From: Myxococcota bacterium
GTDB lineage: Bacteria > Myxococcota_A > Polyangia > Polyangiales > Houyiibacteriaceae
Direction of reading: 5' to 3'
Assembly (NCBI GenBank): GCA_039030515.1
Contig: JBCCEA010000024.1
Coordinates: 1-63,069, forward strand
DNA: 63,069 nt
Position numbers and translations under genes: made by a program. Positions 1 to 5,292 of this stretch are shown here, in pieces. The number at the start of each line of letters is the position of its first letter. Position 1 is the stretch's first letter. A model generated the notes under the pieces. The model was not told where the DNA came from. It was given only the letters and a program-made list of their open reading frames with translations, and ran no database searches.

Positions 1-329
1 CCTCGCTAGGCCTGAACGACCGCTTGCCACCTTGCTCCTCGTCGTCAGGTACCGACTCGTACCCTCCTCCTCCTCGCTTCGGGGGCGCTGGCCGTTCCGA
101 CCCATCGAGACGCGCTGGGCCGAGGAGCGAAGGCGTACTTTGAGTACGTTGAGCGACGAGCATCGGAGGTAAGCCGCTGTTTGGGCCGACTCAGCGACCA
201 CACGCCAGCGGGCCTAGGTTGGTTCAAACAGCCAGCGCCCCCGAAGCACAGGAGCGAAGGCGTACTTTGAGTACGTTGAGCGACGAGCATCGGAGGTAAG
301 CCGCTGTTTGGGCCGACATAGGCCCGCTG
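1..329. repeat. Modular intergenic repeat family A, locus 1 (about 2 units, cut by window edge)
   Basis: Blocks cctcgctaggcctgaacg, cccatcgagacgcgctgggccgagg, cgtactttgagtacgttgagcgacgagcat and gctgtttgggccgac recur at 9.3-9.6, 19.6-19.9 and 39.2-39.95 kb. Confidence 0.9.
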
Positions 330-331
330 AA

Positions 332-371
332 ATAGCAAGAGGGCGACGCTGGGCTAACCAACGCCGCCCTC
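332..371 (-). terminator. Probable intrinsic terminator of a minus-strand transcript
   Basis: Minus strand reads gagggcggcgttgg-ttagc-ccagcgtcgccctc, a 14-bp stem whose two mismatches are G-U pairs only on this strand, followed by ttgctattt. Confidence 0.65.
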
Positions 372-745
372 CGGGGGCCTCTCACCGCTTCTTGGTGAAG
401 AGGATCGTCGGACTAATCTTCGGACCTAGTGAGTGGTGAAAAGCCCCTGGTACAAGTACTGTGCATCTTGCTTACTCCCCCGGCAGTGCCGGCGCTCTGG
501 GGTCTCTGGGCTCGTCCTCACGCCAGACGCAACTCAGAGCGTTCCATGGTAGGAAGCGAGGACCGAATCGCCCTCGCTCCGCTTCAAATGGCAAGTTTCC
601 ATTGCTGGATTTCGCACCAATGCGGGGCCGAAGCCCAACTGCCAATGGGCTCCGCGACCTCGCCCTATTCGCGCGATCGCTCACGTTTCAATGGTACCCA
701 TCTACTGGGCATCCGGCCAGGGTCCTGTGTGGGTTCGAGGTAAAT
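332..745 (-). ncRNA. Candidate large structured non-coding RNA, family unknown; ends approximate
   Basis: About 9 consecutive hairpins including gggc-UUCG-gccc, long-range closing pairs GGACC/GGUCC and CCUGG/CCAGG, a 3' terminator, and no credible ORF. Confidence 0.55.
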
Positions 746-861
746 CTTCTGCGACATCTTGGAATTAATAAGTGATTCCGGCGTGCTTCCTCTTCTGGGC
801 GCCAGGGCTTTCATCCACTCACGGCAGCGGCGGGGAGGATTCACCGCTGGGTGAGCACGTC

Positions 862-1494
862 TCATCGCTGCAGAAACTGGAGAAATTCATGCAGTCGCAT
901 CACATCAGGCACGAGAAAGCCCTCGTCTACTATTTCGAGAATGCCCAAGCGGGACAGTCGATGGATCACCGACAGGACCTCTCGCTCCCGGGCTTGGGTC
1001 TGCTCACAAATGCCGCGACTGTCGACTGTCACAAGCACGCTTGAATCTCCCTGTGGCCTACCGTTGAACTCAGCTTCCCGAGCAATGCAGAGGATGATGC
1101 GCGCCTTGGGGTCGCGATTCATGAGGATTTCGATCAGGGCGTCTGCGGAATCGAGCCGATGGGCCAGCTTTTGAATCAGGCGAACCGCGATCTCTGCATT
1201 ACTCGAGATCATAGTTTCAAAGGTCTGGGCGTCGAGCTCGAGCAAACGGCTGTCCTCGACAACCTGGGCGGTGGCGGTTCGGCTTTTGTGGTTGAGTAAC
1301 GCCATCTCGCCTAGAAACTCTCCACTGCCGAGCCGGGCCAGGGTTCGCTCCTCGTCGCGAATCCTTTTGGTGATCCGCACCGTTCCAACTTGAACCACGA
1401 ACATGGTGTCCCCGGGGTCTCCCTCACGGAACAGCACGGTTCCCGCGGGGCACTCTCTGCCAAACCGAGCGAACAATCGATCGTCAAGCGTCAT
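862..1494 (-). CDS. Crp/Fnr family cyclic-nucleotide-binding regulator
   Basis: LFREGDPGDTMFVV...GEFLGEMALL...RTATA cNMP domain plus C-terminal HTH-like region; start moved to ATG 1494 (MTLDDRLF) to avoid overlap. Confidence 0.85.
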   Translation of the reverse strand: MTLDDRLFARFGRECPAGTVLFREGDPGDTMFVVQVGTVRITKRIRDEERTLARLGSGEFLGEMALLNHKSRTATAQVVEDSRLLELDAQTFETMISSNAEIAVRLIQKLAHRLDSADALIEILMNRDPKARIILCIAREAEFNGRPQGDSSVLVTVDSRGICEQTQAREREVLSVIHRLSRLGILEIVDEGFLVPDVMRLHEFLQFLQR

Positions 1495-1558
1495 CAGCAA
1501 GCTCAATGTTAACCTGGACGTCGTAAGCCCGTCAAAGGCGCCGCAGCCAAACGCGTTG

Positions 1559-2278
1559 TCAAAATGCGCTGGGTCCATAGGCCTGGGGCTCAGCCGCGAT
1601 CTCCGAGAGGGTTTGAGCCGTAAAGGGCGCAGCGTTCTTATCGATGGCCAGCTGGGTCCTGAGCAATCGTAGATCGCTCGGTCGATCGATATCGTACCAG
1701 GGCGGCAACAACCGGGCGCTGCGGGTCGCGAGCACATCGGAGAGGGTATGCGGACTCGACCACCGTACGCGTTCAAATCGAGGCGCGCTGTCTCGGGCGG
1801 CCACAAGATAAAAGCCGCCGTCTGCGCTGGGGCCAAAGACCAGCGGGGCGTCTCTTAGCGCTTCGATGGCCATCGAGAGAATACGTTTCGGCAGCGTCGG
1901 AGTATCGGTGCCAACCAAAAGACCAGCGCCTTGTTTTTGCAACATGACCTGAAGACTTTGCGTCATGCGCGCTCCCAGATCTCCGGTCGACTGCAGCGCC
2001 GTCTCAATGCCGGCATGCGAGGCGATCTCGTCGAGCTCAGCGGATGGACGCGATTTCCAAAGGCAGACGCGCACCCCAACAAGCGCCTTGAACTTCTCGA
2101 GGGTATCCAGAATGAATGCTCGGTGAAGACGGGCTGCGTCTTGATTCGATACGAGCGTCGTGAGCCGGGTCTTGGTCTCACCTGGAATCGGTGGTTTGGC
2201 AAAAACCGCGGCCGGAATTGAGGTCGCGTTCAAGTAGGAAGCCGGATACGCACCTGGTGGGGATTCCGGGTGCATCAA
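1559..2278 (-). CDS. DUF2064/TIGR04282-type (CofC-like) glycosyltransferase
   Basis: FAKPPIPGETKTRL, QSTGDLGARM, VGTDTP, FGPSADGGFYL, YDIDRPSDL motifs. Confidence 0.85.
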   Translation of the reverse strand: MMHPESPPGAYPASYLNATSIPAAVFAKPPIPGETKTRLTTLVSNQDAARLHRAFILDTLEKFKALVGVRVCLWKSRPSAELDEIASHAGIETALQSTGDLGARMTQSLQVMLQKQGAGLLVGTDTPTLPKRILSMAIEALRDAPLVFGPSADGGFYLVAARDSAPRFERVRWSSPHTLSDVLATRSARLLPPWYDIDRPSDLRLLRTQLAIDKNAAPFTAQTLSEIAAEPQAYGPSAF

Positions 2279-2952
2279 ATAAGGTGTCGCGCCACCAGGT
2301 AGAGGATCTTCGATCCTGCGCTGACGCTGCCGCGCACCGTTCCGCTCACCTTCGACTGCCCGATGCGGCGACGGTAAGACACCGGAACTTCCGCATAGCG
2401 AATCTGACTTTTGGCGGCCTTGATCTGCATCTCGACCGTCCAGCCATAGTTCATATCCTGCATGTTCAGCCCGATGAGGGTCGCGTAGCGAATCGCGCGA
2501 AAGGGCCCGAGGTCGGTATACCGCACCCCGTAGAGCAGACTCAGTAAGCGGGTGGCAAGGGCATTACCAAAACGTTGCTGAGGCGTGAGCGCACCCCTCT
2601 CACGCATGCCCCTGGTGCGGCTTCCCACCACGAAATCGACTTCACCGCGACGGATGGGCGCCACGATCTTCGGCATCTCTTCGGGTAGATCACTGAAGTC
2701 TCCGTCGAGAAAGACAACGACATCGGGAGGATCCGAACGCAGGTACTCCAGTGCTTTAAGGCAAGCAGCCCCGTATCCGCGCCTGGGTTCCTGCACCACC
2801 ACTGCACCGGCCCGCTCCGCAACCACAGCGGTGGCATCGGTAGACCCGTTGTCGGCGACGATGATCTGACGCACGGTGTCCGGTATCGCATTCAGGACCT
2901 TCGGCAGCGCCTCTTCTTCATTGAGTGCGGGAATGACGACATCGATTCGCAT
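2275..2952 (-). CDS. Glycosyltransferase family 2
   Basis: VVIPALNEE, DNGSTD, FLDGD, GWTVEMQ motifs; 4-bp overlap with downstream gene. Confidence 0.9.
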   Translation of the reverse strand: MRIDVVIPALNEEEALPKVLNAIPDTVRQIIVADNGSTDATAVVAERAGAVVVQEPRRGYGAACLKALEYLRSDPPDVVVFLDGDFSDLPEEMPKIVAPIRRGEVDFVVGSRTRGMRERGALTPQQRFGNALATRLLSLLYGVRYTDLGPFRAIRYATLIGLNMQDMNYGWTVEMQIKAAKSQIRYAEVPVSYRRRIGQSKVSGTVRGSVSAGSKILYLVARHLI

Positions 2953-3012
2953 GGGCAGGTTATAGAGTGGCCTTTCAGACGCCCATCCTAGCTCTGCCGA
3001 AGCGCAAGGGGT

Positions 3013-3747
3013 CTAAAGTTCTGAGCGAGGAGACAGAATCTTCAGCGGGTCGATGGCGTCGCCGTCCCTGAGCCACTGGAAATGCAGCCGAGCGCCGCGC
3101 GAAGCCCCGGTGGAGCCGACCTCTGCGAGTATCTGCCCTTTCGCCACGTAACTGCCCGGAGGCACGTGGATCACGCTGCAGTGCGCATAAACGCTCATCT
3201 CGCCACTCGGATGCAGGACCATCGCGGTATTGCCGAGGTGCGCCATCGTGCTGTCCGCGTAGACCACGAGTCCGTGATCTGCAGCTCGGATCGGCGTGCC
3301 TTCACGAGCAGACCAGTCCACCCCTCGATGGGACAAATGGGCGTTCGTCTCACTGCCCGGCTGAAACCCGCGGATCAATACGCCCTGCGGGAGCGGGTGG
3401 TGCATCGCCCCTCCACCGGGGACGCCTTGAACCGCATCGAACCATTCCGGTCGTACGCCAGAGCGAAGCAAGTCTAACGCGGCCTCATGGGTCCCCAGTC
3501 CCAAGTCTTCGGCGCGCTGCCGGGCGCTTCCTCTTGGCAAAACTTTTCTGGGTTCCTCAAGCTCTCGAAATGCCGTCGTCGATGACCCGGCTGATTCGGA
3601 GCGGGCACCTGAAACGCTGCGACTCTTGGTGTGGGAAGGTGGGGGGGCCGCATTGGCAGTCCATTGCGGAATGGTAGACAGGATCAGCACGTCGATCGTG
3701 CCAAGGAGCGCCATCAGGGGCAGCCATCGTTTTCGTTGTTCCGCCAT
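3013..3747 (-). CDS. M23 family peptidase-domain protein with N-terminal hydrophobic segment
   Basis: HRGVD, GTPIRAA, YAHC, GSTGASRGARLHF; start placed at MAEQRKRW. Confidence 0.8.
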   Translation of the reverse strand: MAEQRKRWLPLMALLGTIDVLILSTIPQWTANAAPPPSHTKSRSVSGARSESAGSSTTAFRELEEPRKVLPRGSARQRAEDLGLGTHEAALDLLRSGVRPEWFDAVQGVPGGGAMHHPLPQGVLIRGFQPGSETNAHLSHRGVDWSAREGTPIRAADHGLVVYADSTMAHLGNTAMVLHPSGEMSVYAHCSVIHVPPGSYVAKGQILAEVGSTGASRGARLHFQWLRDGDAIDPLKILSPRSEL

Positions 3748-3855
3748 CTCCACCAAAGCTTCGAACGATAGGTGGTGCAACTTGAGCGGACTGTAGCGAT
3801 ATGCCCCCACCGTGTTGCGACGCGTCTCGGTCTTGCTATTGATACGCTCTTGTCG

Positions 3856-5292
3856 ATGCCACGTACCATTCACTTTGTATCCCTCGGCTGCGCCAAAAAC
3901 CGCGTGGATACCGAAGTGATGCTGGGCGTTTCCGACAATGCAGGATTTCAGCATGTCGGTAACCCAGAAGATGCGGAGGTGGTGGTCGTCAACACCTGCG
4001 GATTCATCGGTCCGGCAAAAGAAGAGTCGATCGAGACGATCTTGGAGATGGCGCAGCTCAAGGACGCGGGGACGTGCAAACAGCTCGTGGTGACCGGTTG
4101 CCTCGCACAGCGATATGCCGATGACCTCGCCAAGTCCCTACCCGAAGTCGACCATTTTCTCGGCTCGAGCGATATGCTGCGGCTGGCGGCCGTACTTCAG
4201 GGAAAAGCCCCAAGAGTGCAGGTAGGCAACCCCGCAGACTACGTGCAGTCGAGTCAGGACCCAAGACTGCTCTCCCAGAGAGGCTACAGCGCTTACCTCA
4301 AAATCGCAGAGGGATGCAATCGACGTTGCAGCTTCTGCGCCATCCCTTCGATCCGAGGGCTGCAGCGTTCGCGTTCGGTACGCGACCTCACTGCGGAAGC
4401 CCAACGCCTCGCCGATCAAGGGGTTCGAGAGCTGAATCTTGTAAGCCAAGACACAATCGCTTACGGACGCGATCGAGACGAGCGACCGGATCTGAGCGAT
4501 CTGCTCGAGAGCCTCGGCACGGTCTCGGGGATCGAGTGGATTCGGCTACACTATCTCTATCCGGAAACCCTCAAGCCTCGTTTGATTGAGCTACTGAGGG
4601 ATCACCCTCGGATTCTCCCGTACATCGATATGCCGCTGCAGCATGTATCCGACCCGATGCTGCGTAGGATGCGCCGAGGCCACGGGGGCGATCGGATTTA
4701 CAAGGTTGTCGAAAGGCTCCGAAACGCCCTACCCGACCGGGTATTTCGCACGACTTTTGTCGTGGGCCATCCTGGTGAAACAGCGAGTGATTTCGAGGAG
4801 CTGATGCGGTTTGTTGCCTGGGCAGAATTCGACCACGTGGGCGTATTTCAATACTCGCACGAAGAAGGCACCCATGCCGGCGATATGGAGCACGACGTCG
4901 ATGCCGCGATCGCTCTTGAGCGCTGTGAGCGCTTGATGGATCTTCAACGTGAGATCAGTCGGCGCAGGCTTTCCTCTCGAGTAGGTGAACGTCTGAAGGT
5001 GCTCGTCGAAGGGATCAGCGAAGAGAGCGAGTTACTGCTCGAGGGACGCTACTGGGGTCAGGCGGCGGATGTGGATGGAACGATCTATCTCGCCAACGGC
5101 TCGGCCACTCCGGGCAGCTTCCGAGAGGTTCTGGTGACCGCTGCGACCGAGTACGATCTGGTGGCGGATATGCTCTCTGAGGATGGCGTGCACGATACTC
5201 CCGAGCACATCACGTTTGAGGGCTCAGTGCATACCGCGTCAGCCCATACTGCGATCGAAAGCAGGCCCAGAGTTCGGCTTCCCGTGCTCTGA
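3856..5292 (+). CDS. rimO: Ribosomal protein S12 methylthiotransferase
   Basis: SLGCAKNRVDTE, NTCGFI, radical SAM CNRRCSFC, C-terminal TRAM with QAADVDG. Confidence 0.95.
   Translation: MPRTIHFVSLGCAKNRVDTEVMLGVSDNAGFQHVGNPEDAEVVVVNTCGFIGPAKEESIETILEMAQLKDAGTCKQLVVTGCLAQRYADDLAKSLPEVDHFLGSSDMLRLAAVLQGKAPRVQVGNPADYVQSSQDPRLLSQRGYSAYLKIAEGCNRRCSFCAIPSIRGLQRSRSVRDLTAEAQRLADQGVRELNLVSQDTIAYGRDRDERPDLSDLLESLGTVSGIEWIRLHYLYPETLKPRLIELLRDHPRILPYIDMPLQHVSDPMLRRMRRGHGGDRIYKVVERLRNALPDRVFRTTFVVGHPGETASDFEELMRFVAWAEFDHVGVFQYSHEEGTHAGDMEHDVDAAIALERCERLMDLQREISRRRLSSRVGERLKVLVEGISEESELLLEGRYWGQAADVDGTIYLANGSATPGSFREVLVTAATEYDLVADMLSEDGVHDTPEHITFEGSVHTASAHTAIESRPRVRLPVL

Follow-up and report, generated by a model that had tools for sequence, protein, structure and literature searches.

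The window analysed here is a 63,069-nt stretch of DNA, contig JBCCEA010000024.1 of a Myxococcota bacterium assembly (GCA_039030515.1; order Polyangiales). The minus strand of its 332-745 region is predicted to form a stand-alone transcription unit comprising a promoter, an RNA and a terminator. The RNA spans approximately 685-330 and is ~355 nt long in the source genome, rather than the ~400 nt proposed in an earlier note made from the sequence alone; across lineages its length ranges from ~220 nt in other orders to ~510 nt in Sorangium. Promoter-like boxes on the minus strand (691-720) consist of a -35 element CTGGCC (720-715), an 18-nt spacer and a -10 element TACCAT (696-691). A TAnnnT box is aligned at 696-691 in 22 of 24 loci, so transcription is predicted to start near 685, and the RNA contigs of a Sorangium homologue begin ~11 nt past the predicted start. 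A promoter consensus scan did not pick up the 691-720 boxes. All of the pairing strings listed in the earlier note are present in the sequence, but two of them do not belong to the RNA as delimited here: ugccca/ugggua (711-695) is unconserved, overlaps the conserved -10 box and lies upstream of the predicted start, and GGACC-CUGG near 725, thought to bracket the structure, is unconserved promoter DNA at the -35 box, with 692-760 folding at z +0.6. The RNA ends in an intrinsic terminator (330-372, minus strand; 15 pairs, 372-338). Contrary to the earlier statement that no open reading frame (ORF) precedes this terminator, a Shine-Dalgarno (SD) sequence, SD1 (475-479, minus strand), is followed by a 17-codon mini-ORF (413-466, minus strand; MHSTCTRGFSPLTRSED) with ATG at 466 and TAG ending at 413. 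A terminator is found within 450 nt of the mini-ORF stop in 120 of 127 distinct RNAs, and the 3' part of the RNA varies from 44 to 310 nt among homologues.

The upstream neighbour is a minus-strand gene for a Crp-like cNMP-binding protein (862-1494; PF00027), which is context and not part of the RNA and shares 56% and 48% identity with the Crp-like genes upstream of the homologues L018 and L107. The genes further upstream (1559-5292) encode DUF2064/CofC-like, glycosyltransferase family 2, M23 peptidase and RimO-like radical SAM proteins, and CofC-like and rimO genes also flank the homologues L057, L064 and L109. The described position downstream of a Crp/Fnr gene therefore stands insofar as Crp is a recurrent neighbour, but promoter-like boxes belong to the RNA itself, and many other genes also occur beside it. 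Complementarity between the 3' region of the Crp-like gene (805-822) and the mini-ORF (429-446; 18 nt, 83%) was rejected as a signal, being matched by 83 of 1498 random genomic windows; complementarity of this type in 78 homologues has a median z of 0.05. Two plus-strand ORFs of 104 codons over the region gave no Pfam match, and no plus-strand promoter consensus was found in 1-1600. Directly past the terminator lies an exact 68-nt direct repeat (123-190 and 250-317) within inverted arms (~76-329), which belongs to a REP-like repeat spread over the genome (254 BLAST pieces).

This structured RNA is genuine, conserved and single-copy within one large myxobacterial branch, and it lies outside Rfam. 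BLASTN gave matches in 26 of 60 relatives, one of which (L027) matched the terminator only and was left out. A covariance model, R1, built from 18 of the matched relatives then identified the RNA in 104 of 151 genomes of the order at E<=0.01, a count that takes in the source genome and one unpublished genome (G143), nearly always once per genome. Homologues and covarying helices, both named as checks in the earlier note, were found. Two models of the RNA core only, R2 and R3, reach 40 and 48 of 151 genomes of the class, respectively, and extend to several further families, including 19/20 in family f26 and 6/7 in f82. In the sampled genomes of f67 (0/17), f71 (0/22), f72 (0/22), f74 (0/8) and most other families of the phylum these models had no matches, which is to be read as 'not found' rather than 'absent' because the filters were strict and the models short. 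Outside the class, f52 is the only family with true matches; of 86 genomes in the class of G265, only 4 matched, all of one family. An exact pattern applied to 185,579 genomes returned 87 stretches, and all of the 80 listed match R1; their titles name Polyangiaceae, Sandaracinaceae, Sorangium, Minicystis, Byssovorax, broader myxobacterial or delta labels and, once, 'Proteobacteria'. Matches read and discarded as false were L074, which has no SD or ORF, L226 and L228-L231. The element is single-copy in the source genome, the sole member of its genus within the search. Two metagenome-assembled genomes carry two copies each on different contigs (L149 and L138; L185 and L189) and may be binning mixtures.

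Comparison with catalogued families agrees with the earlier suggestion of an uncatalogued RNA distinct from tmRNA, RNase P RNA, SRP RNA and 6S RNA. An Rfam 15 search of 1-3000 gave no matches at E<=10, ARAGORN found nothing here, and the same Rfam search of 20 homologue loci gave only eight matches, all below the gathering score and scattered over seven families and over strands; a search of 18 loci, most of them distant, gave none at the gathering score. The tmRNA, RNase P RNA, 6S RNA and SRP RNA are found elsewhere in the source genome (contigs C7, C10, C40 and C38, respectively), and all four identities were rejected. Resemblances to group I intron, cobalamin, SAM-I and Alu motifs were considered too and dropped, since covariation in the helix P4 (see below) refutes the T-loop-like register and the GGUC/GACC pairing is local. 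No description of the RNA was found in the literature searched, and a listing in the supplements of PMC11109978 or PMC6429828 or in subscription journals is possible. Term searches of PMC11109978, PMC8632094 (main text and one supplement) and PMC6429828 returned no myxobacterial names, and the accessible part of PMC8538405 names only Pxr and a Myxococcus xanthus survey.

Folding favors the minus strand, as the earlier note had claimed: over 300-780 the z-score is -4.62, versus -3.26 for the plus strand. Without the terminator, minus-strand values are moderate at -2.8 (375-690) and -2.0 (475-690). The fold begins with P1 (654-680, minus strand), a variable 5' hairpin (gcgauc/ggucgc) that forms in most of the homologue folds shown and is unconserved in sequence. 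It is followed by a 5' four-way junction (589-644, minus strand) made of P2 (644-637/597-589), P3 (636-625), P4 (624-613) and P5 (608-599, a variable insert), each with two-sided changes. P3 is the gggc-UUCG-gccc hairpin of the earlier note and is supported by the homologues. The hairpin ugg-ugcgaaau-cca was drawn in the wrong register, since compensatory changes favor P4 as CGCA/UGCG, with the variants CGGA/UCCG, CGAA/UUCG and CACA/UGUG and a third pair that is C-G in 34 and G-C in 32 sequences; the same covariation refutes a T-loop-like register. Forced to form, the enclosing helix ccauug/caaugg gives only -159.2 kcal/mol, whereas the conserved fold reaches -161.8 and the minimum -167.4. In the source copy the conserved junction lies 5.6 kcal/mol above the minimum-energy fold, which prefers another pairing. 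One homologue (L008:1385-1720) lacks ~45 nt over P4-P5 relative to its close kin L002, through natural deletion or assembly error.

Downstream of the junction, the P6 hairpin (552-580, minus strand) and then a single-stranded C/A-rich linker appear in the folds of the source and homologues. P6 (ggagcgagg/ccucgcuucc, 580-552), P1 and the terminator are all present here as the earlier note had them, but their counterparts in homologues are variable. Next come a near-invariant GAA (544-542) and P7 (493-544 together, minus strand), a helix with a conserved base and a very variable interior, and then P8 (480-492, minus strand), a CCGGC/GCCGG hairpin that abuts the SD. P7 (541-493) and P8 (492-480) had both been drawn from the sequence alone, and both are borne out by the homologues. 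The AA of the GAA motif is found in 80/80 homologues. Two MAFFT alignments give two-sided changes in 5/5 and 5/6 base pairs of P7 and in 3/5 and 4/5 pairs of P8; taken together, 8/10 pairs (51 sequences) and 9/11 pairs (45 sequences) change on both sides, far more than in slid controls. A model-fitted alignment of 81 sequences, which is biased towards the model and from which the false match L074 had not yet been removed, has two-sided changes in 29 of 38 pairs. The stretch from GAA through P7, P8 and SD to the start codon is the part never lost among homologues. Finally, P9 (374-447, minus strand) pairs the 3' half of the ORF (447-435) with 386-374, just 5' of the terminator. The proposed ccucuucacc/ggugagagg helix gives way to P9 in the minimum-energy fold, where ggugagagg takes 447-435 of the ORF as its partner. 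P9 is common but not universal: its z-score is -3.1 in the source copy and <=-2 in 48/100 homologues, and its own partner is better than 90% of foreign ones in 45/98. In Sorangium and its kin (L174:680-930, L188, L132 and L194), the stretch between stop and terminator is a nested rod of up to ~250 nt, which is 92-96% conserved among Sorangium strains.

The covarying junction, together with an in-ORF CUCUC that can pair with SD1 and the recurrence of Crp and class II phosphodiesterase genes upstream, would fit a switch in which the 5' domain senses a ligand or protein, such as a cyclic nucleotide, and controls the mini-ORF. The junction is kept within the order, but other orders replace it with a smaller junction and still retain GAA-P7-P8-SD. 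Moreover, SD1 lies outside P8, the SD1:CUCUC helix has a two-sided change in only one of five pairs and the output is unclear. We judge such a switch to be very unlikely.

The module of SD, start, short ORF and stop is the most conserved part of the family. SD1 is GGGAG here and GGAGG in most homologues, and the anti-SD is canonical in all four related genomes tested (the 16S tail is unassembled in the source genome). All 80 homologues have an SD and a start codon, the start lying 12-18 nt from the first G of the SD; starts are ATG (69) or GTG (11), and stops among 79 complete frames are TAG (35), TGA (27) or TAA (17). The mini-ORF has 12-24 codons in 107 of 108 RNAs including the source copy, and length differences among aligned mini-ORFs are multiples of three. 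The remaining RNA (L107:2541-2800) has a 41-codon frame and no SD2, the second SD described below, at the usual place. The source copy (413-480) is atypical for the family in that SD1 is weaker, SD2 is lost and the 3' codons have diverged. The conservation of SD, start, stop and length has the marks of translation.

Such a module could belong to the mRNA of a fast-evolving small peptide, with the structure setting only the amount made. The strong SD and the conserved start, frame and stop agree with this, as does a loose peptide motif within the order, M-[DHQN]-S-T...L-S-x-E-[VG]. Amino-acid purifying selection was not found: mini-ORF pN/pS is 0.8-1.6 versus 0.27-0.47 in neighbors. It is 0.97 over the 34 nearest pairs, 1.61 versus 0.27 for the neighboring gene in one genus (123 pairs, 19 loci) and 0.82 versus 0.47 in Sorangium (78 pairs, 13 loci), the pairs being related rather than independent. 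Synonymous sites are ~6-fold more conserved than in neighbors (pS 0.086 versus 0.577 in the genus; 0.028 versus 0.175 in Sorangium), which places the letters themselves under constraint. Because RNA constraint lowers pS, the pN/pS test of the peptide is weakened and peptide selection may be hidden beneath it; pN does not exceed that of a normal gene, being about equal in the genus (0.139 versus 0.157) and lower in Sorangium. Codon usage argues against a peptide role, as synonymous codons go unused: codon 3 is AGT 38 times and AGC once, and at codon -5 GAG occurs 52 times, whereas GAA is absent from the nine most frequent codons. The peptides of other orders share nothing beyond Met and often one Glu. 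On balance, a peptide-coding function appears unlikely.

A second SD-like site, SD2, lies inside the mini-ORF 12-16 nt upstream of the stop in most homologues. Predicted anti-SD pairing peaks at -16 of both the start (-10.0 kcal/mol) and the stop (-9.0 kcal/mol). SD2 reaches -7 kcal/mol in 92 of 108 RNAs, compared with 12.6 in shuffled ORFs (maximum 19 in 100 shuffles) and with 13% of 642 ordinary gene ends. It is degenerate in the source copy (best -3.6 kcal/mol) and likewise lost in ~15% of homologues. In 94/108 RNAs no start codon lies at -7 to +6 of the stop, and SD2 therefore has no second ORF to serve. It is less variable than P9; in many members it pairs inside P9, so structure may account for part of its conservation. 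It is a G-run without GGA in L003, L073, L083, L093, L240 and L245, which fits anti-SD pairing rather than CsrA binding. Pausing of elongating ribosomes by SD-like motifs is reportedly disputed. The accessible part of PMC6377232 describes lengthening of ribosome footprints by SD-like motifs, and that of PMC5737721 describes in vitro experiments in which an SD 9-14 nt upstream of the stop slows mRNA release 50-fold, so that splitting becomes limiting. Retention of a ribosome by SD2 could be brief, because splitting itself was unchanged in those experiments (PMC5737721, same part) and SD2 of the order exceeds the distance to the stop used there by ~3 nt.

Genes around the RNA vary, apart from the recurrent neighbors ychF, a VWA-domain gene, Crp with a class II phosphodiesterase, and rimO, a pattern that looks like an old chromosomal neighborhood. 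The commonest named neighbor is ychF (9 of 57 loci, plus two more in another locus set), which we take to encode a ribosome-binding ATPase; it is on a different contig from the RNA in the source genome, and the association may reflect chromosomal neighborhood only. The first downstream gene, called with a codon-usage heuristic, is on the same strand in 42 of 108 loci and on the opposite strand in 40, with none called in 16 and too short a stretch in 10. Downstream genes are of unrelated kinds across loci. The 42:40 split upholds the earlier reading of a stand-alone RNA rather than a leader of the downstream gene, and argues against a ribosome-mediated attenuator. An attenuator would account for a short ORF with an SD ahead of a terminator, but the RNA has no regulatory codon run and no antiterminator fold was seen by eye. 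Type I toxin mRNAs have ORF-to-3'-end pairing, which is resembled here. Against a toxin, the peptides are hydrophilic (median GRAVY -0.51, maximum 0.86, none of 108 above 1), the element is single-copy and the viral contigs searched gave no matches to it. Attenuator leader peptides also share the SD-like motif before the stop, as reported in the accessible part of PMC5737721. We consider attenuator and toxin alike extremely improbable.

Public sequencing runs give a hint only that the Sorangium homologue is a very abundant RNA. Between 0.22 and 0.46 of the words of the So0157-2 homologue (L188) occur in 24 runs from 12 studies, 15 of these runs being recorded as RNA. Contigs were mapped to L188 for four of the 24 runs, from four studies, and the evidence comes from these four; they were RNA runs only, picked by this stretch, and the contigs carry no strand or level. 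In a run labelled transcriptomic, 1019 contigs fall on L188, and summed depth, which overcounts, is 1e4-6e5 over 463-966 versus 68 and 12 in the flanks. Adapter ends in this run lie at 465 and 950, and the predicted L188 unit is ~454-962. Three metatranscriptomes have long near-identical contigs inside 474-933, and nothing but short diverged pieces in the flanks, although the gene downstream of L188 is 74-92% conserved among strains. The uncovered flank at 127-462 was dropped as evidence, being mostly poorly conserved among strains.

A stand-alone, apparently very abundant RNA with letter-level conservation might instead act in trans, as a protein sponge or a base-pairing sRNA like the dual-function sRNAs, with translation only stabilizing or gating it. 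The source genome encodes CsrA, in a domain at G000:C1:38373-38528 (L115) within a longer frame. The C-terminal part of that frame is presumably FliW-like, which would make it a possible CsrA-FliW fusion. A CsrB/RsmZ-type sponge, with many GGA motifs in hairpin loops, was rejected: only two GGA sites are conserved, neither of them falls in a conserved loop, and GGA can be missing from SD2. For base pairing, no unpaired seed is conserved across orders, and the length of the 3' part is inconstant (44-310 nt). SD-bound ribosomes do stabilize RNAs according to the accessible part of PMC7509114. We regard action in trans as improbable.

Several known systems resemble the RNA in part. The dual-function sRNAs SgrS/SgrT, SR1/SR1P and Spot 42/SpfP combine conserved effector peptides with pairing seeds; they share a stand-alone RNA with a small ORF, but the conserved effector peptide and the pairing seed were not found here. 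The raiA motif, OLE, ROOL and GOLLD, compared by description, share size, a covarying multi-helix fold, their own promoter and terminator and lineage-wide presence, but we know of no conserved SD-ORF-SD module in any of them. The likeness to tmRNA (RF00023) extends to abundance, single copy, structure, a short ORF and reading by ribosomes, the first and last being predicted here, and to a stop that is often in a hairpin; the RNA described here has no tRNA-like domain or CCA end and has its own SD and AUG. Leader-peptide attenuators, including rnTrpL/peTrpL, a released attenuator RNA of Sinorhizobium meliloti (PMC7298713 and, in its accessible part, PMC7968998), share a short ORF, translated there and probably here, a terminator and an SD-like motif before the stop; the present RNA differs in having no regulated downstream gene or codon run, a 200-nt covarying 5' domain and a peptide not selected for its amino acids. 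STAB-SD and ermC-type stabilizers, as described in the accessible part of PMC7509114, share an SD that belongs to no gene of its own and may both retain a ribosome and shield the RNA. In that account they protect a downstream mRNA from its 5' end, whereas here the extra SD lies against the stop inside the mini-ORF, the sole coding part of the RNA. As in STAB-SD, SD2 has no start codon of its own in most of the family, but the source copy lacks SD2. By analogy, the RNA may work most like an attenuator leader cut loose from its regulated gene, or like STAB-SD.

Comparison of the homologues shows a consistent predicted architecture: promoter-like boxes and a terminator of its own, a covarying GAA-P7-P8 before a strong SD, AUG or GUG, 12-24 codons conserved by letter, SD2 before the stop and often P9 over the 3' half of the ORF. 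This architecture appears to be new in kind, and from it we infer a mechanism. The leading reading, to which we assign a little less than an even chance, is an abundant ribosome-engaging RNA for which translation matters and the peptide does not. The arrangement suggests that its job would be holding ribosomes rather than producing peptide. A ribosome would load at SD1 and melt P9; at the stop, SD2 would be positioned for pairing with the 16S tail, and the post-termination ribosome would remain on the RNA until split. The 30S subunit could then restart at the AUG ~40-50 nt upstream. An RNA kept ribosome-bound would be protected, and the state of its helical domains would be tied to translation activity. 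The peptide would be a by-product, and the cell might use the RNA as a ribosome store or a translation sensor. A more specific and rather doubtful version makes it the ribosome counterpart of 6S RNA: a decoy mini-mRNA at housekeeping level that would load ribosomes at one SD and park them at the stop by a second, with a ribosome cycling on one RNA, and would store or recycle ribosomes or report their activity. In this version the ORFs, none of which is shorter than 12 codons (n=108), could accommodate two ribosomes, one at each end.

Few structured RNAs are abundant, single-copy and present throughout a lineage, and core processes are run by those that are known. Here, selection seems to act on translation itself and on an SD that is set against the stop and serves no gene, while leaving the peptide to drift. 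The RNA would offer a natural test case for SD-anti-SD pairing at termination as an in vivo ribosome hold, which is an open question. Sorangium cellulosum (So ce56 and So0157-2), Minicystis rosea and Byssovorax cruenta, all of them in culture, carry the RNA, which allows its role in these myxobacteria to be tested directly.
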